From the IMG/VR virus record IMGVR_UViG_3300021061_000016: a stretch of DNA of 40,195 bases. One strand, given 5' to 3'. The translations under genes and the position numbers were made by a program. This DNA comes from a virus. The first letter of the stretch is position 1, and every line of letters begins with the position of its first letter. The notes beneath the pieces were generated by a model. It saw nothing but the letters and a program-made list of their open reading frames with translations. It had not been told where the DNA came from and did no database searches. Below are positions 128-39,531 of the stretch, in pieces.

Positions 128-503
128 CGATGACTTTCTTATAAAAATCTCGAATGATGAGATTGAAGTCAAGTTGGTGTCTACCACTGCCATTGTGCGG
201 GCCACAACCATTGCACAGAACACTTGGTATCACATTGCAGTTTCTCGTAGTGGAACAGACGTCAGAATATTTCTTAATGGTACTCAAGTAGGAGCTACAG
301 CCACATCCTCTGCGAATGTTAATTACACAACCCCGCTTGCGATTGGGGCAAATGATGTAGGTGGAACACCATTCCAGTTCTTTTCAGGTTGGATCGATGA
401 GTTTAGGGTTTCAAAGGGTGTTGCTCGCTGGACAGCTGATTTTACGCCGCCAACTTCGGAATATTGTGCAAGTAGCGCACGACGAATTTTCATGGTGAGC
501 TAA
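3..503 (+). CDS. LamG/concanavalin-A-like lectin domain protein, 3' portion; same gene as 39843..40195 across the junction (about 242 aa in total)
   Basis: The frame is open from base 3 to TAA at 501-503, and track ORF 174..503 is its tail. Motifs FDFGTGDFTVDAWVRF, WYHIAVSRSGTDVRIFLNG and FSGWIDEFRVSKGVARW are typical of the Laminin_G_3 jelly-roll fold. Confidence 0.8.
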   Translation, partial: AGDYLTVPDHADFDFGTGDFTVDAWVRFSGSVSNDTLVTRGNDDFLIKISNDEIEVKLVSTTAIVRATTIAQNTWYHIAVSRSGTDVRIFLNGTQVGATATSSANVNYTTPLAIGANDVGGTPFQFFSGWIDEFRVSKGVARWTADFTPPTSEYCASSARRIFMVS

Positions 504-3469
504 TGAAAGTAGATATCATCCAAACCTCATTTGCCGCCGGCGAGATAGGCTCTCCGCTCCATGGCCGGTCGGATCTTGCGCAATGGAATAACGCCTGTCA
601 GATCGTCGAGAACATGATCCCGCGCTCCTATGGCCCGGTCCTCTCTATGCCGGGTACCCGGTACGTCGCCACGGTAAGCTCATCTACACTTCGGACCCGC
701 CTCATTCCTTTTGTCTTCAATAGGACAGACGCCTATATCCTCGAAATGGGCGATTTATATATGCGCTTTTATACCAATCGGGGCCAGGTGGCTGCATCGT
801 CCGGCGCCGGCACGGAGAATTTATCGGGCATCTCGGACCTAATTGCGCATTGGAAATGTAATGATAATACCAATTCCACGACCGTCTTAGACGCCCAAGG
901 AACACATAACGGGACAATATCAACGGGCGTCAATACCGCCACAATTAGCACAACTGGCGTCGTATCGACCGGCTTTAACCTAAACGGCATCTATTCGGTT
1001 GCCGTGGCCGATCATAATAATTTCACCCGTACGGCCTCGAGCCAACCCATGTCGATCGTTGGATGGTTCTACTATGTGGCAAGTGGTGGCATTCAAGCGC
1101 TTGTCGGTAAAGGGGACACAGGCCAAGAAGAATACAGATTGGATATGGATAACGGCGGGCTTGGATTTCGCGTATTCGACAATAATCAGCCGACAAGCCA
1201 TAGATTTACATCGTCCATTTCTCTAAATGAAGGGTGGAATTTTGTCGCGTTAGTTTTCGCCGGTGACGGAACCCAAGCTTCTGATTGCAAATTTTATGTA
1301 AACAAAGTTCTTGCCGTTACCTCTATTGGTGATATTGGAAGCTATGTCGCCATGAGAAACACGACTGGCCGCTTCTTTATCGGCCGATTTGGATCGCCGG
1401 AATATCTATGGCAGGGGAAAGTCGATAACGTCGCCTTCTTTCATAAAGCTCTGTCCTCGGCCGAGGTAAGTTCTTTATACAACATAAGCGCCTATCAGAT
1501 CACGACCGTTTTTCGGGAAAACGAGATATTCGATGTCCATTATGCGCAGCTAAATGACGTGGTATGGCTGACCCACCCCAATCACCCTCCGCAAAAACTG
1601 ATAAGAACCTCATCGAATGAATGGGCTATATCGAATGCGCCAATCACCGGTGGGCCGTTTCTTGACACAAATACCAATACCTCAACAACGCTTTCTGTCT
1701 CGGCGACCCAAGGAACGATCAATGTAACGGCCGGAACTGGCAAGGTCGTCTTTACCCTATCGGGAAGCACCCTAGGCCATCACAATGCCTTCTTTGCGAT
1801 CGGCGGTCTTACGGCTGAAACCAGCGGCACAACCGGGCTAAAAGAGGTCGCTTACGTCAAAATCACCCATGTTATCAATAGCTATACCGCGACCGCGACG
1901 GTAATTAAGAACATTCCGGTCACCACGGCCACCTCTAATTGGGCCGAGGGGGCGTGGAGCGCGGTAAGGGGCTATCCTGCCCGCGTCGCTATCCAGGAGC
2001 GCCGCCTATGGTTTGCCAGGACCAATCACGAACCGCAGAAGGAATGGGGTTCTAAGGTTTTTGAATACGAGAACTTTGCCCTGGATACCCAGGCCGATGA
2101 TGATGGCCTAAACCTAGGCCTAGCCTCGAATGAGTCAAACGAGATCCAATGGCTTGCGCCGGGCAAATCCCTCATTGCCGGAACCTTTGGCGGTGGCTTT
2201 GTGACCAATTCAGGCTCCACCGAGCCGATTACGCCGGATAACGCCAATGCCTCCGAGGAAATAGGTGTCGGATCCGAGCCCATCATGCCGAAGAAGATAG
2301 GAAACTTTATCTATTTTGTCCAAAGGTTCGGAAAGAAGCTCCGAGAAATGTTCTTTAATTGGGAGTTAGACGCCTATAAGGCTGCCGATCGAACGATCCT
2401 CGCCCCTCACATATTGGGCGATGGGGTAATTGACATGGACGTGCAGCGTAACCCCGAGACGATTCTTTATTGCGTTTTAACGTCGGGAACCCTGGCAACC
2501 ATGACCCGGGAGGTCGATCAAGAGGTGACAGGATGGGCTAGGCACACGACAAGCGGGACCTATACCTCAGTCGCCGTGATCCCATCCCAAAGCGAGAATT
2601 ACGACGAGGCGTGGGTCATCGTCGAGCGATGGATCAACGGCTCTCAAAAGAAGTATATCGAGTATTTTGACAATCTCGAGGTGCCATCCAGGCAGGACAA
2701 GTGTAACTACCTTCACTCGGCCCTTACCTTTGACGCTTATGAGGCGACAAGCACTTCGGCCGTCACGATATCGCTCTCCGCTTCCTCGGGGTCTGTCACC
2801 CTTACCTCGTCGAGTGCTTATTTTAATGGTGGGATGATAGGAAAAAGGCTAAGGGCGATCAATTCCGCTGGCACGACCATCGGCGAGGGAACAATCACGG
2901 CAACGGGGTCCACAACCTCGATTACCTTAAGCATCACGACGACCTTTAATGCCTTGAGTTACGCCCGCGGGCTTTGGGGGGTGTCGGTGGCAAGTGTATC
3001 AGGACTGACACACCTTGAAGCAAAGACGGTCGGGATCCTTGCTGACGGGAAAACCGAGTCTTTGACGCGCTCCGTGGCCTCCGGGGTCGTTACTTTGGGG
3101 AGCAATTACTTTGTTATCACCGTCGGGCTTTCCTATGATCAGATCCTTTTTACGCTTCCCAAGGAGGCCGGAACCAATAGAGGCACCGCCCAGGGCAAGA
3201 TGCAGCGGTATAACGAGATCGCCTTTAAGGTCAACCGTTCGACCCAAGGCTTTAAGTATGGGCCGGATTCAAGCAATCTTGATGATGTAAATCTCGCTTT
3301 TACACCAACCGTTACGACACTTTATACGGGTATCCTACCGCCACAGGCCGGCGGCATATCTATGCGAGGGGGATATGCCAGGGGCGCTCAAATTTATATT
3401 AAAAACTCGAATCCGCTACCGATCGAAATATTAAACATCATTGGCTCTTTGGACACCGAGGAAAAATAA
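503..3469 (+). CDS. Tail tubular protein B-like (nozzle) protein with an inserted LamG lectin domain
   Basis: 988 aa; TAATG coupling to the upstream gene. The N-terminus IIQTSFAAGEIGSPLHGRSDLAQWNNACQIVENMIPRSYGPVLSMPG follows the pattern of the T7 gp12-class N-terminus. Residues about 105-325 are LamG-like (WKCNDN ... GKVDNVAFFHKALSSAEVSSLYN). It sits directly before the internal virion proteins. Confidence 0.6.
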   Translation: MKVDIIQTSFAAGEIGSPLHGRSDLAQWNNACQIVENMIPRSYGPVLSMPGTRYVATVSSSTLRTRLIPFVFNRTDAYILEMGDLYMRFYTNRGQVAASSGAGTENLSGISDLIAHWKCNDNTNSTTVLDAQGTHNGTISTGVNTATISTTGVVSTGFNLNGIYSVAVADHNNFTRTASSQPMSIVGWFYYVASGGIQALVGKGDTGQEEYRLDMDNGGLGFRVFDNNQPTSHRFTSSISLNEGWNFVALVFAGDGTQASDCKFYVNKVLAVTSIGDIGSYVAMRNTTGRFFIGRFGSPEYLWQGKVDNVAFFHKALSSAEVSSLYNISAYQITTVFRENEIFDVHYAQLNDVVWLTHPNHPPQKLIRTSSNEWAISNAPITGGPFLDTNTNTSTTLSVSATQGTINVTAGTGKVVFTLSGSTLGHHNAFFAIGGLTAETSGTTGLKEVAYVKITHVINSYTATATVIKNIPVTTATSNWAEGAWSAVRGYPARVAIQERRLWFARTNHEPQKEWGSKVFEYENFALDTQADDDGLNLGLASNESNEIQWLAPGKSLIAGTFGGGFVTNSGSTEPITPDNANASEEIGVGSEPIMPKKIGNFIYFVQRFGKKLREMFFNWELDAYKAADRTILAPHILGDGVIDMDVQRNPETILYCVLTSGTLATMTREVDQEVTGWARHTTSGTYTSVAVIPSQSENYDEAWVIVERWINGSQKKYIEYFDNLEVPSRQDKCNYLHSALTFDAYEATSTSAVTISLSASSGSVTLTSSSAYFNGGMIGKRLRAINSAGTTIGEGTITATGSTTSITLSITTTFNALSYARGLWGVSVASVSGLTHLEAKTVGILADGKTESLTRSVASGVVTLGSNYFVITVGLSYDQILFTLPKEAGTNRGTAQGKMQRYNEIAFKVNRSTQGFKYGPDSSNLDDVNLAFTPTVTTLYTGILPPQAGGISMRGGYARGAQIYIKNSNPLPIEILNIIGSLDTEEK

Positions 3470-4033
3470 ATGGCTATAGGAACAACCACAGCGATCTTAT
3501 TAGGGGTAGGGGCGGCATCGGCCGGGCTTCAAGTAGGCGCTGGAAACGCTCAAGCAAAGAACATCGAGCGCCAAGCCAAGTATAACGCCGAAATTTACGA
3601 CCAACAGGCCGGGATGATCCAGGAGAAAAAGAGGATTCAGGATCAACAATTCAACAGGCAAGCCGCCAGGGTGAGGGGGTCCATCGTCTCAAGAACAGCC
3701 GGCAAGGGACTTTTATTGTCCGGCTCCCCGGCCGCGATCCTAGCCGACACCGAAAGCGAAATGTTATTCGATAAAGCCATCGCCGACTATAACCTCGACG
3801 TTGAAAGAAATTACGCTGCCTCTGGGGCTGGGTATATGAGAGATGAAGGGGCCTCACAAAGCCGGCTTGCAAGATTTACAGGCTATAGTAACGCCTTCTC
3901 AACGCTTCTTAATACCGGCTTGATGGCGGCCCCGTCAATGGCCAAAGCCCCGACATCTGGAAGCACGATCTACAGACCATCGAACACAGGAAGGACCTAT
4001 AAATCGCCCTATGGAAACACTTACAAATACTGA
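3470..4033 (+). CDS. Internal virion protein (small), N-terminal hydrophobic segment
   Basis: 187 aa; ATG one base after the upstream TAA. Gly/Ala-rich hydrophobic N-terminus AILLGVGAASAGLQVGAG followed by a coiled-coil-like region. It occupies the position of T7 gp14-class genes. Confidence 0.5.
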   Translation: MAIGTTTAILLGVGAASAGLQVGAGNAQAKNIERQAKYNAEIYDQQAGMIQEKKRIQDQQFNRQAARVRGSIVSRTAGKGLLLSGSPAAILADTESEMLFDKAIADYNLDVERNYAASGAGYMRDEGASQSRLARFTGYSNAFSTLLNTGLMAAPSMAKAPTSGSTIYRPSNTGRTYKSPYGNTYKY

Positions 4034-4041
4034 GGTGAAAG

Positions 4042-5373
4042 GTGCCTGATTTCCCGCGCTACCAATCCAAAGGTCAAATAACCACCCAGCAGCCCGCCGT
4101 ACAGGCCGCAGACGACACTACAGGCGAAATGCTGGGCCAGGTCGCCAAGGTAGGCCAGAACGTCCAGGAAGCGGCCTTTAAATGGTCCAATACCGTCGAT
4201 ACGGTACAAAAGACGGCCGCCACGGCAAATTTCAAATCAGGGCTATTGGACATCACCCAAAGGGCCCAAGACGACCCCGATTACAATAACTCCGACCAGT
4301 ATTTCAAAGAGATCGAGAAACTACGAACCCAAAGCCTGAAGGGCTTCTCATCTAAAGCCGCCGAGGCGCAAGCCGCCGTCGAGCTTGGGTATGATGCGAA
4401 AGTTGCCCAGATCCAGATCCAGAATCTTTACAAGAAGAAGATGATCGATGTGGGACAGGCGAGCATGCTTAAACTAATCGATACCGAAATCAATAACCCT
4501 AGTGAATCCAGCCTGTCAAATATTCAAAATATTCTTAATACACAGGTGGCCTCTGGAATCGTAGACCATAAGGATGCCTATAAGCTTTATCAGGACTCGG
4601 AGCAAAAGGTCAAATTTAACACATTTCTTAGAGATTTCCGAAACGACCCGGTCGCTGCCGAGAAAGCATTCACTAAAAATACATACGGGCTAGATATCGA
4701 GACCTCCGAAAAGGCCCGCATCAAACTAAAAGAGCTTAAGGCCATGCAACGAGAACAAGAGGGTAATTTGTATGGCGATATGAGTTTGAGGGTAACGACC
4801 GGAGAGATTACAGAGGATGAGATAAATGAAGCTATCGCCGCCAATAAAGCCAATCCCAACGAAGGAATAACAGAGGCGCACGGAAAGCAGCTCATTAATG
4901 CTTATTACAAGGACGTGACAAAAAGAATCGGAGCCAAAGAGTTTAAGAAGCATAGACAAGCCATCGATTTCGTTTTTGCTGATTCTTACCAGGACAGAAT
5001 CAAAGGATATGACGCGATCCTGGAAGCCTACACAGACGGGCTTACCAAAGAGGAGAGCCAGTTTTTAAAGAAGATATTGGATACAAAAAAGGACGTCCAA
5101 TTCGCTAATAAAGCGGCCGCTGGCAAGAAGATGCTAGAAACCCTGCTCGGGGCGAGGCCAAAGGATATCCAGAGAGAAACACAATCCCTTCTTTCCTATG
5201 CTCAAAGAATAGCTGAGGGCATGACACCCGAAGCCGCGGCACAATCGACAGCGCTCGACATCATACACAAAGACCACCCGGCGACCGTTGCAGATCCCGA
5301 TCTTCTTGTCGCATTCACTCCCATGAAAGGCTTGAGGAACATCCCAAAGGTAAAACGTGAAAATTCTGCTTGA
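4042..5373 (+). CDS. Internal virion protein (medium)
   Basis: 443 aa; GTG start preceded by gaggtgaaagg. Helical and charged composition. Assigned by its position between the small and giant internal proteins. Confidence 0.45.
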   Translation: MPDFPRYQSKGQITTQQPAVQAADDTTGEMLGQVAKVGQNVQEAAFKWSNTVDTVQKTAATANFKSGLLDITQRAQDDPDYNNSDQYFKEIEKLRTQSLKGFSSKAAEAQAAVELGYDAKVAQIQIQNLYKKKMIDVGQASMLKLIDTEINNPSESSLSNIQNILNTQVASGIVDHKDAYKLYQDSEQKVKFNTFLRDFRNDPVAAEKAFTKNTYGLDIETSEKARIKLKELKAMQREQEGNLYGDMSLRVTTGEITEDEINEAIAANKANPNEGITEAHGKQLINAYYKDVTKRIGAKEFKKHRQAIDFVFADSYQDRIKGYDAILEAYTDGLTKEESQFLKKILDTKKDVQFANKAAAGKKMLETLLGARPKDIQRETQSLLSYAQRIAEGMTPEAAAQSTALDIIHKDHPATVADPDLLVAFTPMKGLRNIPKVKRENSA

Positions 5374-8300
5374 AGACAAGAATAAGGTAGTCGATATACC
5401 CGAGGGCTTGCAGCCTAATGAGATCGAGGCCGAGCTGCGAAAGTTCTACTCCCCGGAAGAACTGCATGGCTCTACGACCTTTGAGGAAAGAGAGGGATAT
5501 CGCATCCGCAGGGGCCGGGCTTCCGTAGACGACGGCAATGCTTGGTATAAGGCCATGGTAGGCGAGATATCAATGGACGATGCCAGAAAGCAATCGGAAT
5601 CAATAATGGCCGAGTTTACCCCAGACAACGATGAGAAACATCAAGCCTATAACTGGCCTGAGCGGTTCGCGGGTGCCGCAACGGAAATCCTGCCTTACAT
5701 GATGGATTCGGCTATAACTGGCGCCGTTTACGGGGAGGCGATGGGGGCGACATTTGCCGGCGGCGCCATGCTGGCCGGCCAGGCCGGACCACAAGCTTTT
5801 ATCCCTGAGGAAATAGTCACGGTTCCAGGGGCGTATATCGCCGGCAGATCGGTGGGACAGGTTTGGGGCACATGGATGAATGCGACCAAGGTAGAGGGCG
5901 GCAATGCCTATAAAACCATGGTTGAGGGAGGTATTGACCCGGCAACGGCCCGAAACTTTGCGCTACCGGCGGGGTATCTCATAGGGGCGCTTGAGCTTTT
6001 ACAGGTGGAGCGTCTTATCCCTTCTTTTGGCCGGCAGGGCATAACGGAGTTTTTGAAGAAAGCGGCGGTTAATAAAGGCTCCAAGGCTTACCAAACTTTA
6101 AGCAAGGCTTCGGCGCAGATGGCGAAGAATTTAGCCGCAACCACCGCCATTGAAACTGGCCAAGAGATGACGCAGGAGATCGTCAACCTGACCGCAGAGG
6201 TAGGAGCCGGCATTTATAACGATATGGCCGAGGAGGAAGGTTATATCGGTCCCGGCGAAGAAGATATCAAAGAGCGCCTACAAAATACCCTGACAAACTC
6301 CCTTCTTGGATTTCCATTATTGGGCCTTCCAAGGGCAATCCATTCAACGGTATCACTTAATGGCAGGGATCGTTTCGCAGAAAGACCCCTGACCAAGCAA
6401 GCCAAAGAATCGTTAAGTGGTGATTTAACAGAACTGATCCAGGACGTAAGCAAGGTCGAGGAATTTAAGGAATTTCAAGATAGCCTTGGTGAAGAATTTG
6501 GCGATAAAGAAGCCGCTGAGTATGGCTTCGATAACCGCGTTCTTTTTGAAGAAGCAATCTGGAATGCCTCGCGCAATGTGAAAGAGGGCGATATGTACGC
6601 CGAAAATCTACAAATGCGCCAAAAGGACAAGGCAAACCTAATGGGGCCTATAGGCAACGCTTATCAGACCGCCGCCGAATCTGTCTCAAGGATCGCCGAA
6701 CCAATATCCACCCGCCTCAATACAATCAATCCCAAGCTTAAGAATAGGATGCGGAGGTATGAGTTTGACCTAAAGCAGCGAACCTTACAGGACGAAAAAG
6801 CCGTTTTTCCTTTCCTTCAAAAGTACGACAAGCTTTCTGAAAAAGACCAAGCCGACCTGGACTTGGCCTTCAAAAACAATGACGACGCCAGGATCAAAGA
6901 AATCATCGAACGAAATAGCATGGCCGCGGAGTATAAGGCCGTCCGGCACACGCTGGATGCCCTATATGAGAGGGCTACGAAGACCGGCGTGAATATCGGC
7001 TACATTCCAGAGTATTACCCAAGGCAGATCAAGGACGCCAAGGGGATGCTCAAGCTCTTTAAGCAACAGGACGAATGGCCGGAAATGCAAAAGGCCATCA
7101 ATGAAAAAGAGGAAAAGCTAGGGCGCAAGCTTACCGATAACGAGAAGGCCGAGCTGCTTAATTCCATGCTACGGGGCTATAGGGGCAAGAATAGGACGCC
7201 CGGCAACATCAAAAAGCGTGAGATATCCGTCGTTACGCCCGAGTTAAACAAGTTCTACCACCAGGCCCCCCAAGCTCTTTTGAATTACATCTACGGCGTC
7301 AATGATTACGTCGAGGCCCGCCGCTTCTTTGGTAAGTCGGTTAAGGGATCCGAAATGAGCGAGGAAGCAACCAAAGCGAGCATTGGGAATTTTGTCTTAA
7401 ACCTTCTTGAATCCGGTGAGATTGAAGGCAAAGACGCCCAAAGCGTGTCCGATGTTCTTTTGGCCCGGTTCTCCACGAAAGGCCCAGGGGAGATAACCCG
7501 GGCCGTTAAAAATATTTCCTATATGGAAACGATGGGTAGCGTGACATCTGCCATTACCCAGATCGGTGACATCGCCTTCTCTCTTTATAAGAATGGCTTT
7601 TATAACACCGGAAAGGCCCTCGCCAAGCGCCTAGGCGGCCAGGCTGAGATCACCCGAGAAGATATAGGAATTGAGAGGATTGCCGAGGAGTTCGCAGACA
7701 AATCAAAGACGGGTGCCGCTCTCGATAAAGTCTTTAAGATGGTCGGGCTTAACTGGATGGATCGACTAGGAAAAGAAACGCATATTAATGCGGCGCTCGA
7801 GAAGTTTCACAAATTGGCAAAGAACGAGCCGGCAGCTCAAAACGAAAGACAAGCAAAATTTGCCTCTTTAATAAACAATAAAGACCTTATCTCCGAACAA
7901 AGCCGAAAAGAGGCTGAGTTTATAGGCAATAATCTTGAGGAATTTGACGAAGCTTACAGGGCCAAGCTCAAAAAAGAGTATAAGACAGACAACCCCAATA
8001 TTATCTCGTCTGATGTTGCCCGGACCGCTGAAATGGAGGGCCGAGGAAAATTTACTGATCAAGCTTCCGCTGATCGCCATGCTGGGGTATCCGCATACAG
8101 CAAAATGCTTTATGAGGAAATGCTTTCTGATCAGACGCTTTGGGATAAAAACGTCATGGTCATGGCTGGCGTTTCCGGCGCCGGCAAGACAGGAGCGGTA
8201 AGAAAACTAGCTCCCAAAGATTTGAATGACGATATAGTTTACGATACGAATGTTGCTTCTCTTGAATCCGGGGTACGAATTATCGAACAAGCCCTAGCCT

Positions 8301-9442
8301 CCAATCCCGAAAGGGAAGTTCAGGTTTTTTATGTAGATCGGGATCCAATAAAGGCATTTGAAGAAGGCGTTATACCGCGTTATTTGGACCCCGAGGGAGA
8401 TCACCGCGTACTGCCAATAAAAGCACATTTAAATAACATAAAATCAAGAGAAGCAATTAAGCAACTATATGAGCGTTACAAGGATAACCCAAGAGTTCGG
8501 TTTGAATTTATTGGAAACTACGGTGAGAAGGGGGCTTATACCGAGACCTCTATTGAAAATATAGCTTCTAAGGTGTATAATATTGATGAAATAGGAGCAA
8601 TCCTTGAAAAAGGAATCAAAGAAAAACTCAACGCCGGAATCCTCACCAAAGAAGCCGCAGACGCCTTCCGCGGAAAGACATCTTCGATTCACGGAGATAT
8701 GCGCCCGTCGGGTGCAGACTCTAACCAAGAACACAGCCTCAAATTAAGATCCAAACCAAAAACCCCTTCTAAGTTTTATAATCAACTTGTAGATATTTTC
8801 GGTGATAAAGAAGCCGGAAATGTTATCGATGATTTAATCAGTAAAACTCCCTCCGAAAACGTCAAGTTTTTGCTTTTTTCAGAGCTTGCCGATGTCCAAC
8901 CGATCGCTTTATCCGAAATGCCCGAAACCTATCTCCGTGCCGGAAATGGCAGGATCTTCTATATGCTCAAGACCTACACCATCAAGCAAATCGATGTGTT
9001 TAGGAACGAGGTATTTTTACAGATGAAGGATAACCCGGCCAAAGCTTTAGGTAACCTTGTAAGACTCTCTGCATTGCTCATTTTTGCTAATGCCACAGCT
9101 GACGTGATTAAGGACTTCCTGCTTGGGCGGCCTATGGATTCTGAAGACGAGGACTATTGGACTACCAAACTGGTAGACAACATCATCCGTTTATTTGGTA
9201 TCAGCAAATATAGCCTTTACCGATTCAAAAAGGATGGTGTCTCTGAGGGAATCTCAAGCATTGTACTGCCTCCGATATTCAATTTCGTAGCCCGCGGCGC
9301 CAAAGATATCGACAAGGCCATGAAGGATGACGGGGAATTTGAGGCACATCAGGCCGAGATTATTCAGAGCGTTCCGCTTCTCGGTAAGCTCTATTATTGG
9401 TGGTTCGGTGGCGGCAGAAAAAAAATAGAGGACGAGGCTTAA
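5357..9442 (+). CDS. Giant internal virion/ejection protein with an embedded zeta-toxin-like P-loop kinase module
   Basis: 1361 aa; GTG start overlapping the upstream stop. Gly/Ala-rich hydrophobic segments lie near the N-terminus (GAVYGEAMGATFAGGAMLAGQAG). Walker A GVSGAGKT at 8168-8191 is followed by VYDTN, VFYVDRDP and GVIPRY. This is the last gene of the tail/ejection block. Confidence 0.6.
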   Translation: MKILLEDKNKVVDIPEGLQPNEIEAELRKFYSPEELHGSTTFEEREGYRIRRGRASVDDGNAWYKAMVGEISMDDARKQSESIMAEFTPDNDEKHQAYNWPERFAGAATEILPYMMDSAITGAVYGEAMGATFAGGAMLAGQAGPQAFIPEEIVTVPGAYIAGRSVGQVWGTWMNATKVEGGNAYKTMVEGGIDPATARNFALPAGYLIGALELLQVERLIPSFGRQGITEFLKKAAVNKGSKAYQTLSKASAQMAKNLAATTAIETGQEMTQEIVNLTAEVGAGIYNDMAEEEGYIGPGEEDIKERLQNTLTNSLLGFPLLGLPRAIHSTVSLNGRDRFAERPLTKQAKESLSGDLTELIQDVSKVEEFKEFQDSLGEEFGDKEAAEYGFDNRVLFEEAIWNASRNVKEGDMYAENLQMRQKDKANLMGPIGNAYQTAAESVSRIAEPISTRLNTINPKLKNRMRRYEFDLKQRTLQDEKAVFPFLQKYDKLSEKDQADLDLAFKNNDDARIKEIIERNSMAAEYKAVRHTLDALYERATKTGVNIGYIPEYYPRQIKDAKGMLKLFKQQDEWPEMQKAINEKEEKLGRKLTDNEKAELLNSMLRGYRGKNRTPGNIKKREISVVTPELNKFYHQAPQALLNYIYGVNDYVEARRFFGKSVKGSEMSEEATKASIGNFVLNLLESGEIEGKDAQSVSDVLLARFSTKGPGEITRAVKNISYMETMGSVTSAITQIGDIAFSLYKNGFYNTGKALAKRLGGQAEITREDIGIERIAEEFADKSKTGAALDKVFKMVGLNWMDRLGKETHINAALEKFHKLAKNEPAAQNERQAKFASLINNKDLISEQSRKEAEFIGNNLEEFDEAYRAKLKKEYKTDNPNIISSDVARTAEMEGRGKFTDQASADRHAGVSAYSKMLYEEMLSDQTLWDKNVMVMAGVSGAGKTGAVRKLAPKDLNDDIVYDTNVASLESGVRIIEQALASNPEREVQVFYVDRDPIKAFEEGVIPRYLDPEGDHRVLPIKAHLNNIKSREAIKQLYERYKDNPRVRFEFIGNYGEKGAYTETSIENIASKVYNIDEIGAILEKGIKEKLNAGILTKEAADAFRGKTSSIHGDMRPSGADSNQEHSLKLRSKPKTPSKFYNQLVDIFGDKEAGNVIDDLISKTPSENVKFLLFSELADVQPIALSEMPETYLRAGNGRIFYMLKTYTIKQIDVFRNEVFLQMKDNPAKALGNLVRLSALLIFANATADVIKDFLLGRPMDSEDEDYWTTKLVDNIIRLFGISKYSLYRFKKDGVSEGISSIVLPPIFNFVARGAKDIDKAMKDDGEFEAHQAEIIQSVPLLGKLYYWWFGGGRKKIEDEA

Positions 9443-9585
9443 CGATGTTCGATGTCTGGCTCGTAAGGATCGGGATGGTTCCATTTGTAATAAAAGGCAG
9501 CCCCAAGAACGCCGATTATCATGGTCCAGGCGATAATCAACGCCAAGATCGATTTCCAGGTATGTTTTTCTTTTTGCATAAAAAA

Positions 9586-9606
9586 GCGGGGGCATTTAGC
9601 CCCCGC
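9586..9606. terminator. Intrinsic terminator for the minus-strand moron, possibly bidirectional
   Basis: 8-bp GC stem GCGGGGGC (9586-9593) / GCCCCCGC (9599-9606) with a 5-nt loop. On the minus strand it is followed by TTTTTT (9580-9585). On the plus strand it is followed by aagtttt. It lies between convergent genes. Confidence 0.8.
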
Positions 9607-9612
9607 AAGTTT

Positions 9613-9804
9613 TCAGTCGTTCCAACCGAGAGTGTTTGCGTTATTCCACGAATTTCCATCATTGGAAGTATCGCGGTAATGGCTCGATACATACGTTCCA
9701 TTGCTGCGGGTATAGCCTTTGATGCGCTTGATCTGGGCATACGCAGGAGAGGCGAGGCTTGATACAAACGCGAACAGGGCGAACGCTAGAACTACTTTCT
9801 TCAT
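9613..9804 (-). CDS. Small secreted protein (moron); Sec signal peptide
   Basis: 63 aa. MKKVVLAFALFAFVSSLASPAYA|QIK is a classical signal peptide with an AxA site. SD aaaaggagg lies upstream on the minus strand. This is the only convincing minus-strand gene, and it has its own terminator. Confidence 0.7.
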   Translation of the reverse strand: MKKVVLAFALFAFVSSLASPAYAQIKRIKGYTRSNGTYVSSHYRDTSNDGNSWNNANTLGWND

Positions 9805-9886
9805 GTTGTCCTCCTTTTATGTTGGGCATGAACAGAAATAGCGTACCACACAAAATTAAGCTTAGGGAAAAAGGAGTAAATTAAAG

Positions 9887-10255
9887 ATGTCAGGCCCGGA
9901 TGGGGTAGACAGAAGGCGCTCGGACGACGAGTTCAAAATAAATCTATTAAGGAAGCTTGATGCCATTGAGTATGAAGGAAAGGCCATGAAGACCGAGCTT
10001 TTGAATCTTTCAAAAAGCGTCGAACACTCGAACGCCAATACAAAAGCCTTCAAGGTCTTGATCGACGAGGACATTCAGAACCTTCGTGTAGCGATCCAAG
10101 GCGACGAGGGGAAGGGAATCGTTGGTCTTGCCTCGCGCTTTTCAACGCTCATCCATGAGCTTTCCGAGCATATCATTCAGGATCGATGGGCTTATGGGAT
10201 CATGATCACGCTTCTTATAACCACACTCGGATGGACGGTGTTTCATGCCAAATAA
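9887..10255 (+). CDS. Coiled-coil protein with a C-terminal transmembrane anchor
   Basis: 122 aa; SD aaaaaggag upstream of the ATG. C-terminal hydrophobic helix WAYGIMITLLITTLGWTVF. Confidence 0.55.
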   Translation: MSGPDGVDRRRSDDEFKINLLRKLDAIEYEGKAMKTELLNLSKSVEHSNANTKAFKVLIDEDIQNLRVAIQGDEGKGIVGLASRFSTLIHELSEHIIQDRWAYGIMITLLITTLGWTVFHAK

Positions 10256-10496
10256 AGCAGGAGGACGCATAGATGCAAAGCGGGTCCAAAAAAGGCCGCA
10301 AAGGCCGGAAGGGGTACTAATGCCTACGAATAGAACAACCTGGATGGTCATATTGGCGGCGATTTCCGCAGCCGCTATTTATGCTCAGACGGTCGTAACA
10401 AACGGATTTGATTTTGGTGAGTTCATCAAATTCGTTAATTCCGAGGCCGTGATCGCAGCTCTCGGATTCTTAAGGGCAGCCGTCGCAAAAAAGTAA
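10245..10496 (+). CDS. Small membrane protein, possibly holin-like (alternative start at 10320)
   Basis: 83 aa with two hydrophobic segments (WMVILAAISAAAIYAQTVV and AVIAALGFLRAAVA). An in-frame ATG at 10320 would give 58 aa. No family was recognised. Confidence 0.4.
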   Translation: MPNKAGGRIDAKRVQKRPQRPEGVLMPTNRTTWMVILAAISAAAIYAQTVVTNGFDFGEFIKFVNSEAVIAALGFLRAAVAKK

Positions 10497-10509
10497 CGCC
10501 GCGGACTCT

Positions 10510-10550
10510 CCACCAGTTAGATGCGCTACTTCTCGCGCTAAAACTGGTGG
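10510..10550 (+). terminator. Stem-loop after the small membrane-protein gene (no U tract)
   Basis: CCACCAGTT (10510-10518) pairs with AACTGGTGG (10542-10550), giving a 9-bp stem around a 23-nt loop. No T run follows. Confidence 0.3.
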
Positions 10551-10774
10551 GGAATGTCCGCATTGAAACCGGCCGCCTATACACTCCTGACGGCACCCCT
10601 TACGCCGGCTTCAAGGTGACTATCGGATCGGTGCTAGACCCCTCCTCAGTCAAACGCACCTACACCGATATAGAGGCTATTTTCCAAAAGAATAAGACTC
10701 CCTATAAGATTCACGAAGAATTTAGGGAGGGTAGCAAGTTCAAGTCTTATACGATCGAAACCGGCCCAATATAA
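10547..10774 (+). CDS. Hypothetical protein (start uncertain)
   Basis: 75-aa ORF with ordinary composition. Its GTG start lies inside the 3' arm of the stem-loop and no clear SD is present. Confidence 0.3.
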   Translation: MGNVRIETGRLYTPDGTPYAGFKVTIGSVLDPSSVKRTYTDIEAIFQKNKTPYKIHEEFREGSKFKSYTIETGPI

Positions 10775-10776
10775 CC

Positions 10777-10805
10777 TTGACAGACAATTAAAATTTCTTA
10801 ATAAT
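10777..10805 (+). promoter_or_regulatory. Sigma70-like promoter upstream of the integrase
   Basis: TTGACA (10777-10782), a 16-nt spacer, then TAATAA(T) at 10799-10805. Confidence 0.45.
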
Positions 10806-10950
10806 CACCCCTTCGTAATTTAGCCCATTTATACGCTTTTAAGGCCAGTTCAGCACTTTTGAACCCCTAGCTTTGGCCTCGCCTGGGAATCGCCATCGGA
10901 TTGCCCACAGGCCGCCCCTTTGATGGTAAAAAAGACCCTCAAGGGAAGCC

Positions 10951-11898
10951 ATGCCACCAATCAATAACCGATTTAAAAAGCCAACATTATCCGAAGATCT
11001 TTTAGCGGATTATCTGACATACCTTTCAGACCTTGCTCAGATGACCCCCGATTCCATCCGGCATAACCGGCGCTGGATCGAACGAATTGAGGAGGCCTAT
11101 GGAGGATCTATTCTGGGTGCCCAGACGGCCTCTCAAGTGAATGCTGCCATCCTTGAGGTGGCAAAGACCCGAAAAGTCGCCTATAACGGATCTCCTCAAT
11201 CAGAGGATACTGGCCAATTGAAGTTTAGGCTTGGCCGGGCGGTCGTCGGATATATGCGTTGGGCCTATTCTGAAAACTTTATCCAAAAGAATATCTACCA
11301 AAAAAATCCATTTAGAAGACCTCATAGCCCTGAGGCAAATTGGCATGATGAGGAGAGGACCATGGCTTTATATAAGGATGAGAGTTTTTCTTTATATGAT
11401 CGCGCTCTGATTCGCTTTCTTATAGATACCGGCTGCCGGGTGGGGGAGATGTGCCAAATCAAGCTTGAGGATGTTGATCTTGATAATGGACACGCGAGGA
11501 TCTTTATGCCAAAGGTCAAACGCCTTAAAGATGTCCCGTTATCAGAGCATACCTGTAAAACCTTGAAGGCTCTAATAAAACGTAGGCGGCACACTCCGTT
11601 TTTATTCCACAGTAGGCAAAGTGCCACCATAAGCCCTAACGCAGTGAGGATTCGCCTAAGAAAGTTGGGTCAGAAATTGGGCTATAGGATCAACCCTCAT
11701 TCCTTCCGACACGCGGCCGGAACATTATGGGTAAAACACCATGGCGAGATACAAGCTCAAAAGCTTTTAGGCCATGTGGACCATGCGGCCACCGCAAGAT
11801 ACACGCATTATCTCTTGAAGGACCTCAAAGAAATGCAAAGTGCAATTTACGAGGGAAGGCTGGCGCCCAGAGAGTTAGTATCCGCGTCCAAAAAATAA
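10951..11898 (+). CDS. int: Tyrosine recombinase / phage integrase
   Basis: 315 aa. Catalytic signature DTGCRVGEM ... HSFRHAAGT ... LLGHVDHAATARYTHY, that is R, HxxR, H and Y in the canonical order. Confidence 0.9.
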   Translation: MPPINNRFKKPTLSEDLLADYLTYLSDLAQMTPDSIRHNRRWIERIEEAYGGSILGAQTASQVNAAILEVAKTRKVAYNGSPQSEDTGQLKFRLGRAVVGYMRWAYSENFIQKNIYQKNPFRRPHSPEANWHDEERTMALYKDESFSLYDRALIRFLIDTGCRVGEMCQIKLEDVDLDNGHARIFMPKVKRLKDVPLSEHTCKTLKALIKRRRHTPFLFHSRQSATISPNAVRIRLRKLGQKLGYRINPHSFRHAAGTLWVKHHGEIQAQKLLGHVDHAATARYTHYLLKDLKEMQSAIYEGRLAPRELVSASKK

Positions 11899-17504: not shown

Positions 17505-17887
17505 CCTGGGGAGCGATTAAACGCAACCTCACCGACAAGCTTTTCTCGGACTATATCCGAATCAAAGCCAAGTGGATTTGCGAGCTTTGCAAGCGTGATT
17601 TTTCCACACGCCAATCTAAATTCGATTGCTCCCATTTTTACACCCGCGGAAACAAAGCTGTTCGCTTTGCCGAAGAAAACTGCTCCGCACTTTGCCGCGG
17701 ATGCCATGACTATTTCGGAAAGAACCCAAAAGAACACACTCTCTGGATGGAAAGAAAGCTTGGGATGGAAGGTTTTGCAAAGCTTACGATTCGAGCCCAC
17801 CAAACGAAACCCTCCTGGGAGATCAAATTTGACGAACAGACGATGAGGGTTTGGCTTAAACAACAACTGGCGAGGATGGGGGCATGA
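17501..17887 (+). CDS. NinG/Rap-like recombination endonuclease
   Basis: 128 aa. LFSDYIRIKAKWICELC ... DCSHFYTRGNKAVRFAEENCSALCRGCH follows the lambda NinG pattern FN.YIR.RD..C.SCG...GH....RF.E.N...C..CN. Confidence 0.6.
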   Translation: MTWGAIKRNLTDKLFSDYIRIKAKWICELCKRDFSTRQSKFDCSHFYTRGNKAVRFAEENCSALCRGCHDYFGKNPKEHTLWMERKLGMEGFAKLTIRAHQTKPSWEIKFDEQTMRVWLKQQLARMGA

Positions 17888-18288
17888 CCCAAATAGCGAT
17901 CGGCGAAGAAGTATATGCCATAAAAGCCTCCGCAGAACATGTGAAAGAGGAGTCGGAATGGTTCGGAAGTCAGATTGAATCTCTCCAAGCTTCCCGCATG
18001 AAATATCCGGTTGGCAAGGAGTTCAAGGTCCACCATCACATTCTCAATCCTCGGACCATCAAAAGAACCCAGGAAGCTTTTATCGTCATAAAAGGCAGGG
18101 TCGCCGTGGATATCTACGACATGAAGGGTGCCATCATCGGAAGTTTAGAAGCGGGTCCAGGTGAAGCGATCTTTGTCTACCGGGGCGGCCACGGCATACG
18201 GGTCCTTGAGGACTTTATCGGGTACGAGATCAAAGCCGGCAGCTATTCATACGTTTCAGAAGACAAGGTCTTTCTCGAAGATGTATGA
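17884..18288 (+). CDS. Cupin-fold protein (WbuC / sugar ketoisomerase-like)
   Basis: 134 aa; ATGA overlap upstream. KVHHHILNPRTIKRTQEAFIVIKGRVAVDIYD ... GEAIFVYRGGHGIRV is a cupin beta-barrel signature. First gene of the glycan island. Confidence 0.5.
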   Translation: MTQIAIGEEVYAIKASAEHVKEESEWFGSQIESLQASRMKYPVGKEFKVHHHILNPRTIKRTQEAFIVIKGRVAVDIYDMKGAIIGSLEAGPGEAIFVYRGGHGIRVLEDFIGYEIKAGSYSYVSEDKVFLEDV

Positions 18289-18868
18289 ACGAAACGATGT
18301 GATCAGGCAGTTTGAAAAGACCATCGCCGAGCATTGCGGTGCGCCTTATGGCGTTGCCGTTGAAAGCTGCACCGCAGCCCTTCTTCTGTGTTGCATTTAT
18401 CTCAAGGTCAAAGAGGTAACGATTCCCAAAAAAACTTATTATAGCGTCCCTTTCAGCATCCTTCATGCCGGAGGCACGGTCAATTTTGAAAGCTTGAAAT
18501 GGCGCGGGGCGTACCAACTAAAGCCTTATCCGATCATCGACAGCGCCATGAGATTTAAAAAAGCCATGTTCGAGCCGGGCAAATTAATGTGCCTATCGTT
18601 CCATTATGCAAAGCATATCCCAATCGGCCGGGGCGGGATGATCCTAACCGACAACAAGAAAGCCGCCGAATGGTTCCGCGTCATGCGTAACGATGGCCGG
18701 CGAGAAGTACCGAAGGAAATGGACAAAGTAAGGCTTGCCGGCTGGAACTTTTACATGAATCCCGAACAAGCGGCGAGAGGTTTGTCTTTGTACTATTGGC
18801 GCATTTTCAATCAAAAGGATCCTCAAGACCTTCCCATGACCCACGGAGATATTTCAAGTGTTCTCTAG
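18281..18868 (+). CDS. Short DegT/DnrJ/EryC1-like PLP-dependent sugar aminotransferase
   Basis: 195 aa from the internal ATG of track ORF 18161..18868. FEKTIAEHCGAPYGVAVESCTAALLL ... IIDSAMRF ... LSFHYAKHIPIGRGGMILTD retains the SFxxxK lysine motif. It is about half the usual length. Confidence 0.55.
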   Translation: MYERNDVIRQFEKTIAEHCGAPYGVAVESCTAALLLCCIYLKVKEVTIPKKTYYSVPFSILHAGGTVNFESLKWRGAYQLKPYPIIDSAMRFKKAMFEPGKLMCLSFHYAKHIPIGRGGMILTDNKKAAEWFRVMRNDGRREVPKEMDKVRLAGWNFYMNPEQAARGLSLYYWRIFNQKDPQDLPMTHGDISSVL

Positions 18869-19505
18869 AAACTACGCCGAATTTTACGATTTGTTCAATT
18901 CGGACAAGCCTTACAAAAAAGAAGTGGCCTTTGTCTACCGTTGGGCGGGGCGGCCTCATTCGATATTCGATATTGGCTGCGGGACAGGGAACTACTGGAG
19001 GCACTTTCCAAAATCGACCCATATTGTCGGCATCGACAGGTCGCAAGCGATGGTCGACAACGGCTATAGGATCATCCATGCCGACGCCATGACGTTTAAA
19101 ACCAATGTCCGGTTCGACTGTGCGACGGCCCTATTTGATGTCCTGAACTACATGCCGCGGAATGACTGGTGGGCCAATATCCCGGTGAAGAAGGGCGGGT
19201 ATTTCATCTTCGATATTTGGGACAAAAAAAAAGTTATGCGCGACGGTTTCAAGGAAACATTCAAGAACATCGGCCGGTATTGCCGGAAGATCACGCCTGT
19301 CCGGTGGAAGGAAAACGCCATTGATCTTAAGGTCGAGGTTATCTACATCGGCGACGATCATCACGAAACCGCCGCGAGCGAGATTCATACGATGTATCTC
19401 TATGGACAGAAGGACATCAAGAAATTTTGCGGTAAGGAATTTGAGATCGTCGATGTGAAGCCCACTAGCCGTTGGCAGACTTGGTATAAATGCAAAAAAA
19501 AATAG
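18858..19505 (+). CDS. Class I SAM-dependent methyltransferase
   Basis: 215 aa. Motif I IFDIGCGTGNYW, then post-I IVGIDRS. Confidence 0.7.
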   Translation: MFSRNYAEFYDLFNSDKPYKKEVAFVYRWAGRPHSIFDIGCGTGNYWRHFPKSTHIVGIDRSQAMVDNGYRIIHADAMTFKTNVRFDCATALFDVLNYMPRNDWWANIPVKKGGYFIFDIWDKKKVMRDGFKETFKNIGRYCRKITPVRWKENAIDLKVEVIYIGDDHHETAASEIHTMYLYGQKDIKKFCGKEFEIVDVKPTSRWQTWYKCKKK

Positions 19506-20530
19506 CACTCCTTCACCGCTACCCGGCCGATCAAATTAAATCCACCAATGCAGCGTTTCCGTATCTTGTTCAAAATCGATTCAGGGAGCCATTAGATTAT
19601 CGCCCAGGGGCAGTAAATTATTATGGCCCAGGCATGGACGTTTTAACCTTCAAATCCTTCGACCGCCTTTCCAAGTGGAAAAAGTTTTGGAAAAGCCTGG
19701 CCTGGATCTTCTATGCGCCTTACCTTGTCGCGGGAAAAGGCTATGACGTGATTTATTGCGACGATTCATACCCTTTTTATGGGGCAATCGTCAAAGCCGT
19801 ATGCCCGAGGGCGAAGGTTGTTTTAAGAATCGGCGACCTTCACCTCATGTATTACTATTCCGGCCTCGTATACAAGGTGCTGCACTTCCTTGAGCGTATC
19901 GCCTGGCTCATGGCCGACGAGATAATCGTTATATCTGAGGCGATGGCCGAATATTTTCATGCCGAAATTGGTCGCCGGCCGAAGGTCGTTTTAGACCCGG
20001 TCGATCCGGCAGACTTCCCGCCGATCCGGTCCTATCCCACCGAAACGATCATGTTTCACGGAACGCTTACCAAAAATAAGAACGTCGACATCATGCTCGA
20101 GGCCGCAAAATGGCTGCCGTATTACGACTTTGTAATTCTTGGCGACGGACCGGATTATGCAAGGCTCAAGAAAATCGCCACGAAAAACGTTCATTTCCAA
20201 GGATGGGTGCCGTTCAAGGATATCTACCAACATATCGCCTCATGCTCGATCGGGGTCGCTTTAAGAAGCGATAACCCGGGTAATGAGTATGTCGTCACCT
20301 CGCCCTTCATCCAGTACGGGATCATGGGAAAGCCCTGCCTTGTCACCCGCCGGAAGGTCTTTGGCGACTATAAATGGCAGTTCTCCAACGTCGCCGAAAT
20401 GGTGGAGAAGATACATATCCTCATGGTCCGGCCCGAGGAAGGAAAGAAACTCAAAGAGCATGTCTTGAAAAACCACGATGCTAAAAAGATCGCCGAGGAG
20501 ATATGGACGATCCTATCGTCACTATCGTAA
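19490..20530 (+). CDS. Glycosyltransferase, GT-B fold (GT1/GT4-like)
   Basis: 346 aa. C-terminal domain IMFHGTLTKNKNVDIMLEAAKWLPYYDFVILGDGPDYARLKK ... VHFQGWVP ... is typical of Glycos_transf_1. Confidence 0.75.
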   Translation: MQKKIALLHRYPADQIKSTNAAFPYLVQNRFREPLDYRPGAVNYYGPGMDVLTFKSFDRLSKWKKFWKSLAWIFYAPYLVAGKGYDVIYCDDSYPFYGAIVKAVCPRAKVVLRIGDLHLMYYYSGLVYKVLHFLERIAWLMADEIIVISEAMAEYFHAEIGRRPKVVLDPVDPADFPPIRSYPTETIMFHGTLTKNKNVDIMLEAAKWLPYYDFVILGDGPDYARLKKIATKNVHFQGWVPFKDIYQHIASCSIGVALRSDNPGNEYVVTSPFIQYGIMGKPCLVTRRKVFGDYKWQFSNVAEMVEKIHILMVRPEEGKKLKEHVLKNHDAKKIAEEIWTILSSLS

Positions 20531-37196: not shown

Positions 37197-37805
37197 ATGG
37201 CAACCTATACGACCGTCGGGCTCTGTAACCACGCGCTTTTATTGTGCGGCGCCTCGCCTATTACGGCCCTGACCGATGATACCGCCAACGCCAGGTCGCT
37301 AAATGCCGTATTCGAGAACGCCAGGAAGGGCTTTTTGACCGAATGTCGGTGGACCTTTGCTTTGACCCGTTCAAGCCTCGCTACGAGCGCGACCACGATG
37401 GCCTGGCTTCACGACGAGGAATCCTATGTTTACAGCCTTCCTTCCGATGCATTAAGGATTTGGGAGATGTCGGACATCGAGGCGATATGGCGCCAGGAGG
37501 GAAGCTATATCATCTCGAACACCGCAAGCCTGGGGACGCTTTACACCAGGGATCATTCGGAAGTCGGGCTTTGGGGTCCAAAAGCCACGATCGCTTTCAT
37601 CGATAAGCTCTGCTCGGATATCTGCTTCATGATCCTAAACTCCGGTACCAAGGCCCAAGCCTTCCTTGAGAAGTACCAAAAAGTGTCCCTTCCCGCGGCC
37701 ATGGCCGAGGAATCCCAGACCGGCACCCATCAACAGGTCATAGATGACGCCTGGCCTCGGGCCAAATACGGAAATGGCGGTAGTCCTTCAAGGTCTTATA
37801 GCTAA
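37197..37805 (+). CDS. Tail tubular protein A-like / head-tail adaptor
   Basis: 202 aa. The N-terminus LCNHALLLCGASPITALTDDTANARSLNAVFENARKGFLTECRWTFAL follows the T7 gp11-class pattern IN.AL..IG...I..L.D ... W.FA. Confidence 0.6.
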   Translation: MATYTTVGLCNHALLLCGASPITALTDDTANARSLNAVFENARKGFLTECRWTFALTRSSLATSATTMAWLHDEESYVYSLPSDALRIWEMSDIEAIWRQEGSYIISNTASLGTLYTRDHSEVGLWGPKATIAFIDKLCSDICFMILNSGTKAQAFLEKYQKVSLPAAMAEESQTGTHQQVIDDAWPRAKYGNGGSPSRSYS

Positions 37806-37981
37806 TGAAGCGGATCGTCTTGGGATTCTTCATGGGCTTTATCTTTGCGAGTGCCCCGGCGCTATTGGCAAAGACAGAATTTGAATCACGCGATGCAGAA
37901 TCCGTTGTCGGATATGGGTATAACGGCAGCACTCTTGTCGCAATAAAGGTGGATGCTAATGGTGTTGTCCAGACAAGCTAA
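37805..37981 (+). CDS. Small signal-peptide protein (58 aa), paralogous to the tail-fibre N-terminus
   Basis: TAATG coupling. Sequence MKRIVLGFFMGFIFASAPALLA|KTEFESRDAESVVGYGYNGSTLVAIKVDANGVVQTS. Below the track cutoff. Confidence 0.5.
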   Translation: MKRIVLGFFMGFIFASAPALLAKTEFESRDAESVVGYGYNGSTLVAIKVDANGVVQTS

Positions 37982-39515: not shown

Positions 39516-39531
39516 ACCAAGGAGAACGTAT

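Follow-up and report, generated by a model that had tools for sequence, protein, structure and literature searches.

A candidate ng_zeta1-type kinase inserted in the giant gp16-position protein of an apparent podophage genome

Which enzyme is built into a giant phage protein that stands where T7 keeps its largest ejection protein, and what could it do there? The question is raised by the IMG/VR virus record IMGVR_UViG_3300021061_000016, whose whole stretch of 40,195 nucleotides is called the window here. It contains an open reading frame (ORF) of 1361 residues, the giant ORF, in which an earlier note, made by eye from the sequence, had seen an ejected internal virion protein carrying a zeta-toxin-like kinase. 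Proteins injected with phage DNA are the first move of a phage on its host, and few such enzymes have been characterised. Our searches leave little doubt that the module is a P-loop kinase of the zeta-toxin superfamily, that it belongs to the rewired subclass of Neisseria gonorrhoeae zeta_1 (ng_zeta1), and that it is inserted in the giant protein. Coordinates are collected in Table 1.

A plain Pfam scan could not confirm the call made by eye, since the window domain alone scored 18.9 bits against Zeta_toxin (cut-off 22.3 bits), over the P-loop only. Scans with Pfam, NCBIfam and PHROG gave further sub-threshold P-loop matches (nSTAND3, RsgA, SRP54, FtsY), and as all Pfam matches stayed below threshold, routine annotation would leave the region unnamed. 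A search with residues 851-1110 of the giant ORF returned 34 homologs (E 1e-30 to 9e-8), mostly of about 350 residues. A precomputed Zeta_toxin match was present in 33 of these, one homolog also had an SLT domain, and on rescanning, Zeta_toxin (PF06414) matched all 34 at E ≤ 0.01 (best E 6e-17). The profile of alignment A1, made of 33 homologs and the window domain (34 sequences), was compared with the PDB and matched ng_zeta1 over chain residues 22-269 (6EPH, E 6.8e-22; 6EPG, E 1.9e-20), the next match having an E value of already 0.02. The AlphaFold2 model of the window domain (predicted local distance difference test score, pLDDT, 86; predicted template modelling score, pTM, 0.83) led to the same protein: in a Foldseek search of the PDB, 6EPH, 6EPI and 6EPG were the best matches (E 1e-10 to 4e-9, template modelling (TM) score 0.69-0.72), followed by AvrRxo1, streptococcal zeta and PezT (E 2e-4 to 2e-2, TM 0.37-0.47), and the top 13 matches were without exception ng_zeta1, AvrRxo1 or zeta. 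In BFVD, the best matches were phage proteins of 766-1114 residues, one of them annotated as zeta-toxin domain-containing, with 5-hmdU DNA kinase, polynucleotide kinase and thymidylate kinase as weak neighbours only (E > 0.01). Placement in a non-kinase ATPase family, which the earlier note had named as the result that would speak against it, found no significant support in the profile search of the PDB or the structure searches of the PDB and BFVD, and the profile and fold searches rule out the STAND, GTPase and SRP readings of the P-loop. The module is thus placed in the zeta-toxin superfamily by both approaches, as the note had proposed.

The subclass is what sets the module apart from the textbook zeta toxins. 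In ng_zeta1, two sequence blocks are swapped, so that the block with the catalytic Asp lies ahead of the P-loop; D56 serves as the catalytic base, K115 as the Walker A lysine, and R175 and R181 form a phosphate patch (Rocker et al. 2018, PMC5923241). The window domain has the same rewired order, with D886, K944, R1008, R1017 and H908 at the positions of D56, K115, R175, approximately R181, and H79. D886, at the place of the Asp that deprotonates the sugar hydroxyl (D56 in ng_zeta1, D67 in zeta), stands N-terminal to the P-loop as in the rewired subclass, 58 residues before K944; H908 is conserved, and both members of the Arg pair that neutralises the phosphates are present, the second offset by two residues. 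Conservation was measured over 183 family sequences, in which 70 columns are at least 85% conserved. All the elements that had been read by eye (Walker A, VYDTN, VFYVDRDP and GVIPRY) were recovered, the Walker A stretch being exactly GVSGAGKT. The module is discrete, as had been said, but it exceeds the proposed residues 885-1085, and its likeness to zeta/PezT in the order of elements holds for the superfamily and not for the arrangement, which is that of ng_zeta1. D963 of VYDTN aligns with ng_zeta1 E133 and, judging from the alignment, probably fills an acidic position of a Walker-B-like or Mg-binding kind and is not the catalytic base; the phage family conserves this additional YDTN where ng_zeta1 has FEGQ.

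Identity between ng_zeta1 and the module is only about 18%, and the two differ in setting: ng_zeta1 stands alone as a toxin and is paired with an epsilon antitoxin gene, whereas the window kinase is an internal domain of a protein from a phage structural module. The window contains no ORF like the small ones that flank stand-alone phage homologs (see below), a test that is blind to an unrelated inhibitor; as far as the sequence tells, an internal domain of a 1361-residue ORF with no recognisable antitoxin gene is not an epsilon/zeta toxin-antitoxin system. Classical zeta and PezT (1GVN, 3Q8X, 2P5T), which are 3'-kinases of UDP-N-acetylglucosamine (UDP-GlcNAc), and the NAD kinase AvrRxo1 (4Z8V) share with the module the superfamily fold, the P-loop kinase chemistry and a nucleotide-linked substrate, and their Foldseek matches, although weaker, are significant. 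They gave no significant profile match, however, they use other substrates and phosphorylation sites, and in classical zeta/PezT the blocks are in linear order, with the Asp after the P-loop. The UDP-GlcNAc kinases offered as a model in the earlier note are accordingly too narrow a guide: not only the C3' of UDP-GlcNAc comes into question, as ng_zeta1 phosphorylates the C4'-OH of UDP-N-acetylmuramic acid (UDP-MurNAc; kcat 200 s^-1, KM 0.23 mM), UDP-GlcNAc and UDP-glucose (UDP-Glc) (PMC5923241).

The kinase occupies a well-delimited insertion. A full-length search with the giant protein found 14 relatives, 53-67% identical, that cover only about 60% of the query; 12 of them are 1040-1073 residues long and have no insert, the exceptions being P0041 (1256 residues) and P0049 (1199 residues). 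Alignment A2 shows a collinear scaffold that is well conserved to either side of the site, while residues 822-1132 are unmatched in the 12 insert-free relatives, the close ones of which are 57-67% identical to the window protein; the insertion falls between "...INAAxxKxxxLA" and "KxxKKF...". Nucleotide comparison by blastn of the window gene with two related loci (L011 and L012) shows a gap at this site, and the G+C content of the insertion is 43.8%, against 49.2% in the rest of the ORF. With a DNA identity to the relatives of only about 65%, junction repeats are not assessable. At the same site (A2 columns ~860-1190), P0041 has weak ART-PolyVal and DUF3990 matches (E 7e-5 and 2e-5) and P0049 a weak GNAT match (E 9e-4), all below cut-off. 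More distant scaffold relatives of 1200-2300 residues carry ADPrib_exo_Tox (P0068), a Pesticin-type lysozyme (P0063), GP88, LPD38, LPD22 and MuF_C. Since the site is empty or holds a kinase, an ART-like or a GNAT-like domain across relatives, these comparisons suggest that the scaffold is a carrier with exchangeable enzymatic cargo, and that this gp16-position protein contains a hot-spot of cargo exchange. As a kinase, an ART and a GNAT need ATP, NAD and acetyl-CoA, respectively, the cargo slot would be expected to end up in the host cytoplasm.

The gene order around the giant ORF is that of a T7-type tail and ejectosome module. Tube A, tube B (the tail tubular proteins A and B), a phrog_418 protein, a 443-residue protein and the giant ORF follow one another as do T7 gp11, gp12, gp14, gp15 and gp16; tube A precedes tube B across the window ends, because the window is apparently a permuted whole genome. 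The giant ORF is the last and largest of the three genes after tube A and tube B. The 443-residue protein, also present at the gp15 position in L011 and L012, had no match in the family scans; its end overlaps the start of the giant ORF by 17 nucleotides in the window (5357-5373) as in L011 and L012 (both 6001-6017), which is consistent with translational coupling. The order of tube A, tube B, internal protein and giant ORF is kept in L011, L012, the GenBank podophage MW202722.1 and the IMG/VR contig L092, so that the gp16 position claimed by the earlier note is borne out and proves to be conserved. The relatives begin with the same N-terminus as the giant ORF (MK/RVLLEDK). Residues 29-334 are the most widely conserved part of the scaffold (phrog_28077, unknown function), and within them lies, at about residues 100-220, the Gly/Ala-rich hydrophobic stretch noticed earlier near the N-terminus; the two hydrophobic segments of the C-terminal scaffold are at about residues 1228-1257 and 1294-1312. 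No SLT or lytic transglycosylase match to Pfam was found anywhere in the 1361-residue protein, in agreement with the reading by eye.

T7 gp16 is a largely helical protein of 1318 residues, for which two transmembrane regions are predicted; there are 4-6 copies of it, and it refolds past the portal, after which its N-terminal transglycosylase is periplasmic and its C-terminal part cytoplasmic (PMC8954989). The giant protein resembles it in its position after tube A, tube B and two smaller internal proteins, in size, in a predicted, mostly helical structure, in its hydrophobic segments and in carrying an enzyme module at all. It differs in that no likeness to gp16 in sequence or fold was detected and an SLT domain is lacking, and in that its kinase depends on the cytoplasm and lies in the C-terminal third, whereas the enzyme of gp16 is a periplasmic muramidase at the N-terminus. 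Ejection proteins are very poorly conserved, and the N-terminal transglycosylase is phage-specific rather than universal (PMC8954989).

The module is by no means confined to this scaffold. An exhaustive profile search gave 3096 clusters at 50% identity (E ≤ 1e-3), 1401 of them at E ≤ 1e-30; the median length of the best 147 clusters is 831 residues, 120 of these are longer than 600, and family representatives are mostly embedded in proteins of 600-2500 residues. In a sample of 49 representatives, Zeta_toxin was found in all 49, next to ddrB-ParB (7), SAM lyase (2), InPase, ART-PolyVal, NUDIX and SLT, which is the hallmark set of polyvalent proteins. Two further phages have the module in a comparable place. 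L092 (37 kb) has tube A (phrog_394), tube B (phrog_376, E 1e-185), a 690-residue protein (phrog_992) and a 1413-residue ORF (6717-10958) with the module at residues 412-689, which is similar to the window protein in the module only (32% identity, E 8e-26) and unrelated in the remainder. In the GenBank phage MW202577.1 (L001, 39.6 kb), the module is at the C-terminus of an 878-residue protein (5943-8579) with an unrelated scaffold, encoded by the final gene in a run of four (752, 183, 640 and 878 residues), of which it is also the largest; the product name "thymidylate kinase" given there to UOF78922.1 is a mis-annotation of the same kinase module. From these sequences, large proteins in the slot after the tail tube appear to have acquired the module independently in at least three phages of different podophage lineages. 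At least 308 viral contigs in IMG/VR carry a relative of the module. Close relatives occur in one of 50,697 GenBank phage records, no PLSDB plasmid has the module at E ≤ 1e-10, and nearly all that is known of the family comes from uncultured phages; a scan of genome contigs for a clue to the host gave only four short fragments of metagenome-assembled genomes, from unrelated phyla.

The idea of an injected zeta-like kinase is already known as a computational prediction. Iyer, Burroughs, Anand, de Souza and Aravind described in 2017 zeta-toxin-like kinases in polyvalent proteins of phages and conjugative elements, MuF-fused in the phages, and proposed that the kinase weakens the wall and helps DNA entry (PMC5512222). 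The giant protein agrees with the polyvalent proteins in being a large multidomain protein, thought to be delivered with invading DNA, with swappable effector domains, and its module family co-occurs with ddrB-ParB, ART-PolyVal, InPase, NUDIX, SLT and LPD domains. A delivery-associated scaffold with variable effector domains is indeed what the scaffold family shows. The window carrier, on the other hand, stands at the gp16 position of a T7-type module for tail and ejectosome and is not a MuF or ddrB-ParB protein, and it has a single recognisable effector at a defined site, where P0041 and P0049 have other inserts. Except for a single sentence in Iyer et al. 2017, no paper found in the literature joins zeta toxins with internal virion or ejection proteins, no experimental follow-up of the 2017 prediction was found in the searchable literature, and the ng_zeta1 paper leaves phages unmentioned (PMC5923241). 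What we add is the assignment to the rewired ng_zeta1 subclass, a defined cargo slot with kinase, ART-like, GNAT-like and empty variants in scaffolds 53-67% identical, and independent capture in several T7-type ejectosome proteins.

Beyond the fold and family, the conserved catalytic residues, the insertion, and the gene order with its recurrence in other podophages, all of which the comparisons show, we infer packaging, ejection, cytoplasmic exposure, activity, a substrate and a benefit to the phage, which may be combined in the following way. The kinase would have been acquired as a cassette at the cargo-insertion site of a large all-helical protein in the gp16 slot. The giant protein would be packaged in few copies, threaded through the tail at infection and refolded, and the tethered kinase would thereby be exposed to the host cytoplasm. 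With ATP, it would phosphorylate a nucleotide-activated sugar, most likely UDP-MurNAc, UDP-GlcNAc or UDP-Glc, to dead-end products, and cell-wall synthesis would be starved locally or transiently before phage gene expression. We propose that the giant protein is a polyvalent protein that is ejected with its effector already in place. To the overall reading, in which a packaged and ejected protein exposes a tethered ng_zeta1-type kinase that spoils envelope precursors, we assign a probability of about 0.6; that both the UDP-sugar substrate and the action in the entry phase are right is a more tentative matter, a little short of an even chance. The SLT-zeta fusions in the family (P0030, P0081, P0086) fit the cell-wall theme, and it is this role that Iyer et al. 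put forward for such kinases (PMC5512222). Packaged enzymes that act this early have precedents: the ADP-ribosyltransferase T4 Alt and the N4 virion RNA polymerase are packaged in the capsid, injected and active before phage gene expression, although they belong to other phage types, have other chemistry and are not part of an ejectosome protein. The giant protein may therefore be likened to ng_zeta1 for its chemistry and to injected enzymes of the T4 Alt type for its logic. With a turnover on UDP-MurNAc like that of ng_zeta1, a few molecules could, by our own estimate, matter in slow-growing hosts.

Several observations weigh against this reading. In ng_zeta1, K59 and N75 bind the carboxyethyl group of UDP-MurNAc (PMC5923241); the window has R889 and S904 there, R and S being likewise the consensus of the phage family, and because of these replacements the substrate preference of ng_zeta1 is not transferable. 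The window copy is also a divergent member, which keeps the family consensus at 38 of the 70 highly conserved columns. Most of the conserved residues that it has lost are charged (E to T890, Y to G895, R to F899, E to A909, H to N1027, D to G1053), and two of them, the equivalents of E60 and R71, are kept in ng_zeta1; an altered specificity or a reduced activity of the window kinase is possible on these grounds. The argument for packaging and ejection is purely one of synteny. The scaffold profile (alignment A2) gave no sequence match in the PDB to gp16 or to a solved ejection protein, and Foldseek with the model of the scaffold relative P0036, which is all-alpha and of low confidence (pLDDT 58), found nothing below E 0.8; one chain labelled "Cyanophage A4 pre-ejectosome" came up at E 1.8, which carries no meaning, and with so poor a model the absence of a match to ejection proteins is unsurprising. 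Of the "ejected internal virion protein" of the earlier note, the conserved gene order therefore stands, while similarity to T7 gp16 in sequence or fold could not be demonstrated. Furthermore, the 80 IMG/VR contigs whose relatives come closest to the window copy contain 76 complete ORFs of the family, of which 64 are stand-alone (≤450 residues) and 12 are larger. The stand-alone genes examined (~350 residues) adjoin the terminase, just upstream of the large subunit, in phage contigs of ~36 kb, and as the closest IMG/VR relatives are mostly of this kind, the family is not restricted to ejected proteins. Finally, by our estimate, so few enzyme molecules may draw off no more than a small part of the peptidoglycan-precursor flux in a fast-growing host.

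The lack of the substrate-specifying residues of ng_zeta1 leaves room for an injected kinase with another target. After the model of AvrRxo1, it might phosphorylate NAD(+), NAD-derived or nucleotide immune signals and so disarm abortive infection before transcription. AvrRxo1 (E 2e-4) is the next-best structural neighbour after ng_zeta1, the alternative cargos at the site or in the family (ART, GNAT, SAM lyase, NUDIX, InPase) are typical conflict enzymes, and Iyer et al. cast polyvalent proteins as counter-defence devices (PMC5512222). We nevertheless consider such a role unlikely, as the likeness to ng_zeta1 is far above that to AvrRxo1 (TM 0.7 against 0.44), the rewired topology and the common D/K/R/R/H set point to UDP-sugar chemistry, and the SLT-zeta fusions link the module to attack on the cell wall. 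Equally doubtful is a broader version, according to which the gp16-position protein is a delivery vehicle whose slot swaps enzymes with cytoplasmic cofactors between near-identical scaffolds, and the kinase, as a pre-loaded means of immune evasion, hits, before transcription, a defence nucleotide or NAD-type metabolite and not peptidoglycan precursors.

The terminase-adjacent relatives bear on the time of action. The kinase could work in the cytoplasm before packaging, draining wall precursors and thus aiding lysis or arresting host envelope synthesis, with its location in the virion incidental. Late expression would supply many more enzyme molecules than ejection, other phages have stand-alone family members next to terminase or late genes, and ng_zeta1 expressed alone lyses E. 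coli within 30 min, a toxicity that K115A abolishes (PMC5923241). Set against this are the independent recruitment of the module to a giant protein after the tail tube in at least three podophage lineages and its interchange with ART-type and GNAT-type cargo at the insertion site; both would otherwise be hard to explain, which argues that delivery by the virion matters, and we give late action alone a low probability, the two roles being able to coexist. Still less probable, in our judgement, is a degenerate domain that has lost catalysis and remains as a nucleotide- or sugar-binding part or a spacer of the ejectosome. The window copy departs from the consensus at 32 of the 70 highly conserved columns, several of them charged, and has the lowest score with the Pfam Zeta_toxin model, under its cut-off; yet the Walker A GxxGxGKT, the catalytic Asp, both Arg residues, YDTN and RDP are intact, the domain model is confident, and the frame is open over all 311 inserted residues, although the scaffold of the relatives exists without them. 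We read the kinase as probably active, with an altered substrate pocket.

Under the preferred reading, of an ejected kinase acting on envelope precursors, podophage ejectosome proteins would double as effector-delivery devices if the domain is active after ejection, and it would then also add a defined UDP-sugar or nucleotide kinase. The finding ties a phage domain to ng_zeta1, the one subclass whose chemistry and structure have been solved, and the site is a clean natural experiment, in which scaffolds of 57-67% identity are empty or carry kinase, ART-like or GNAT-like cargo. It is not conceptually surprising; as phage and host are uncultured, its present value is mainly that of a solid, well-delimited candidate.

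Table 1. Features of the giant ORF and of the surrounding genome, in window coordinates.
Feature	Position	Strand	Basis or remark
Giant ORF	5357..9442	+	GTG start, 1361 aa, T7 gp16 position
N-terminal scaffold, aa 1-821	5357..7819	+	alignment with relatives
Cargo insertion, 311 residues, aa 822-1132	7820..8752	+	alignment A2; blastn gap vs L011/L012
Zeta-toxin-superfamily kinase domain, ng_zeta1 subclass, aa 823-1106	7823..8674	+	alignment to the family hidden Markov model, profile, fold
D886 in SSDVAR, predicted catalytic base	8012..8014	+	aligns with ng_zeta1 D56; 99% conserved in family
Walker A/P-loop MAGVSGAGKTGAV, aa 936-948	8162..8200	+	HMMER alignment; GVSGAGKT = nt 8168-8191
K944, Walker A lysine	8186-8188	+	aligns with ng_zeta1 K115 (K46 in zeta)
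VYDTN, aa 961-965	8237..8251	+	D963 99%, N965 98% conserved in family
VFYVDRDP, aa 990-997	8324-8347	+	R995, D996, P997 conserved
GVIPRY, aa 1004-1009	8366-8383	+	R1008 aligns with ng_zeta1 R175, phosphate-binding patch
R1017 (DHRVLP)	8405..8407	+	99% conserved; approximates ng_zeta1 R181, two residues off in Gly-rich loop
C-terminal scaffold, aa 1133-1361	8753..9442	+	two hydrophobic segments, conserved YYWWFGGGRKKIE tail
Tail tubular protein A-like gene	37197..37805	+	phrog_394, E 4e-30
Tail tubular protein B-like gene	503..3469	+	phrog_376, E 1e-161
Small internal virion protein, 187 aa, gp14 position	3470..4033	+	phrog_418 "internal virion protein", E 8e-14
443-aa protein, gp15 position	4042..5373	+	by position
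Tyrosine integrase	10951-11898		gene identification
RecE/RecT pair	14684-16581		gene identification
Glycan gene island	18161-25782 (17884-25782 in wider bounds)		glycosyltransferase, epimerase, aminotransferase, methyltransferase genes
Large terminase	30463-31839		gene identification
Portal	32748-34412		gene identification
Major capsid protein	35686-36573		gene identification

The window appears to be the whole, permuted genome of a temperate podophage of ~40 kb, and a protein identical to the giant ORF product is recorded in contigs as long as 40,224 bases. The ORFs scanned, which are a part of those in the window, included neither an RNA polymerase nor a DNA polymerase, and the window has no tRNA; this temperate podophage would then combine T7-like genes for tail and ejectosome with a different strategy of replication and expression. 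The glycan island, which had been thought to fit a rerouting of nucleotide sugars by the kinase, was confirmed, but nothing apart from the shared genome connects the two, and the link was dropped. The island holds a DegT-type aminotransferase, a methyltransferase, one GT4 and four GT2 glycosyltransferases and two epimerase/dehydratase ORFs. Several of its ORFs overlap their neighbours and match only part of the Pfam model (DegT at 18161-18868, model positions 163-231 of 360; epimerase at 22838-23545, positions 48-240 of 240), which suggests frameshifts, split genes or assembly errors. Upstream of tube B, two ORFs of 520 and 239 residues on the + strand (37953-39515 and 39127-39846) overlap by ~390 nucleotides in different frames, where L011 and L012 have a Laminin_G_3 protein of ~230 residues; one of the two may be mis-delimited or frameshifted.

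Two minor observations concern relatives of the module. A conserved basic ORF of 48 residues (L002 9855-10001, L003 406-552, L005 9852-9998, L006 3873-4019) abuts the start codon of stand-alone homologs, and the homologs themselves are followed in these four loci by an overlapping ORF of 45-46 residues; by its layout, this could be an epsilon-like antitoxin arrangement. The SLT-plus-zeta fusion P0030, in a phage-like contig (L004, 10001-11254), ends prematurely compared with the near-identical P0021, probably due to a frameshift.

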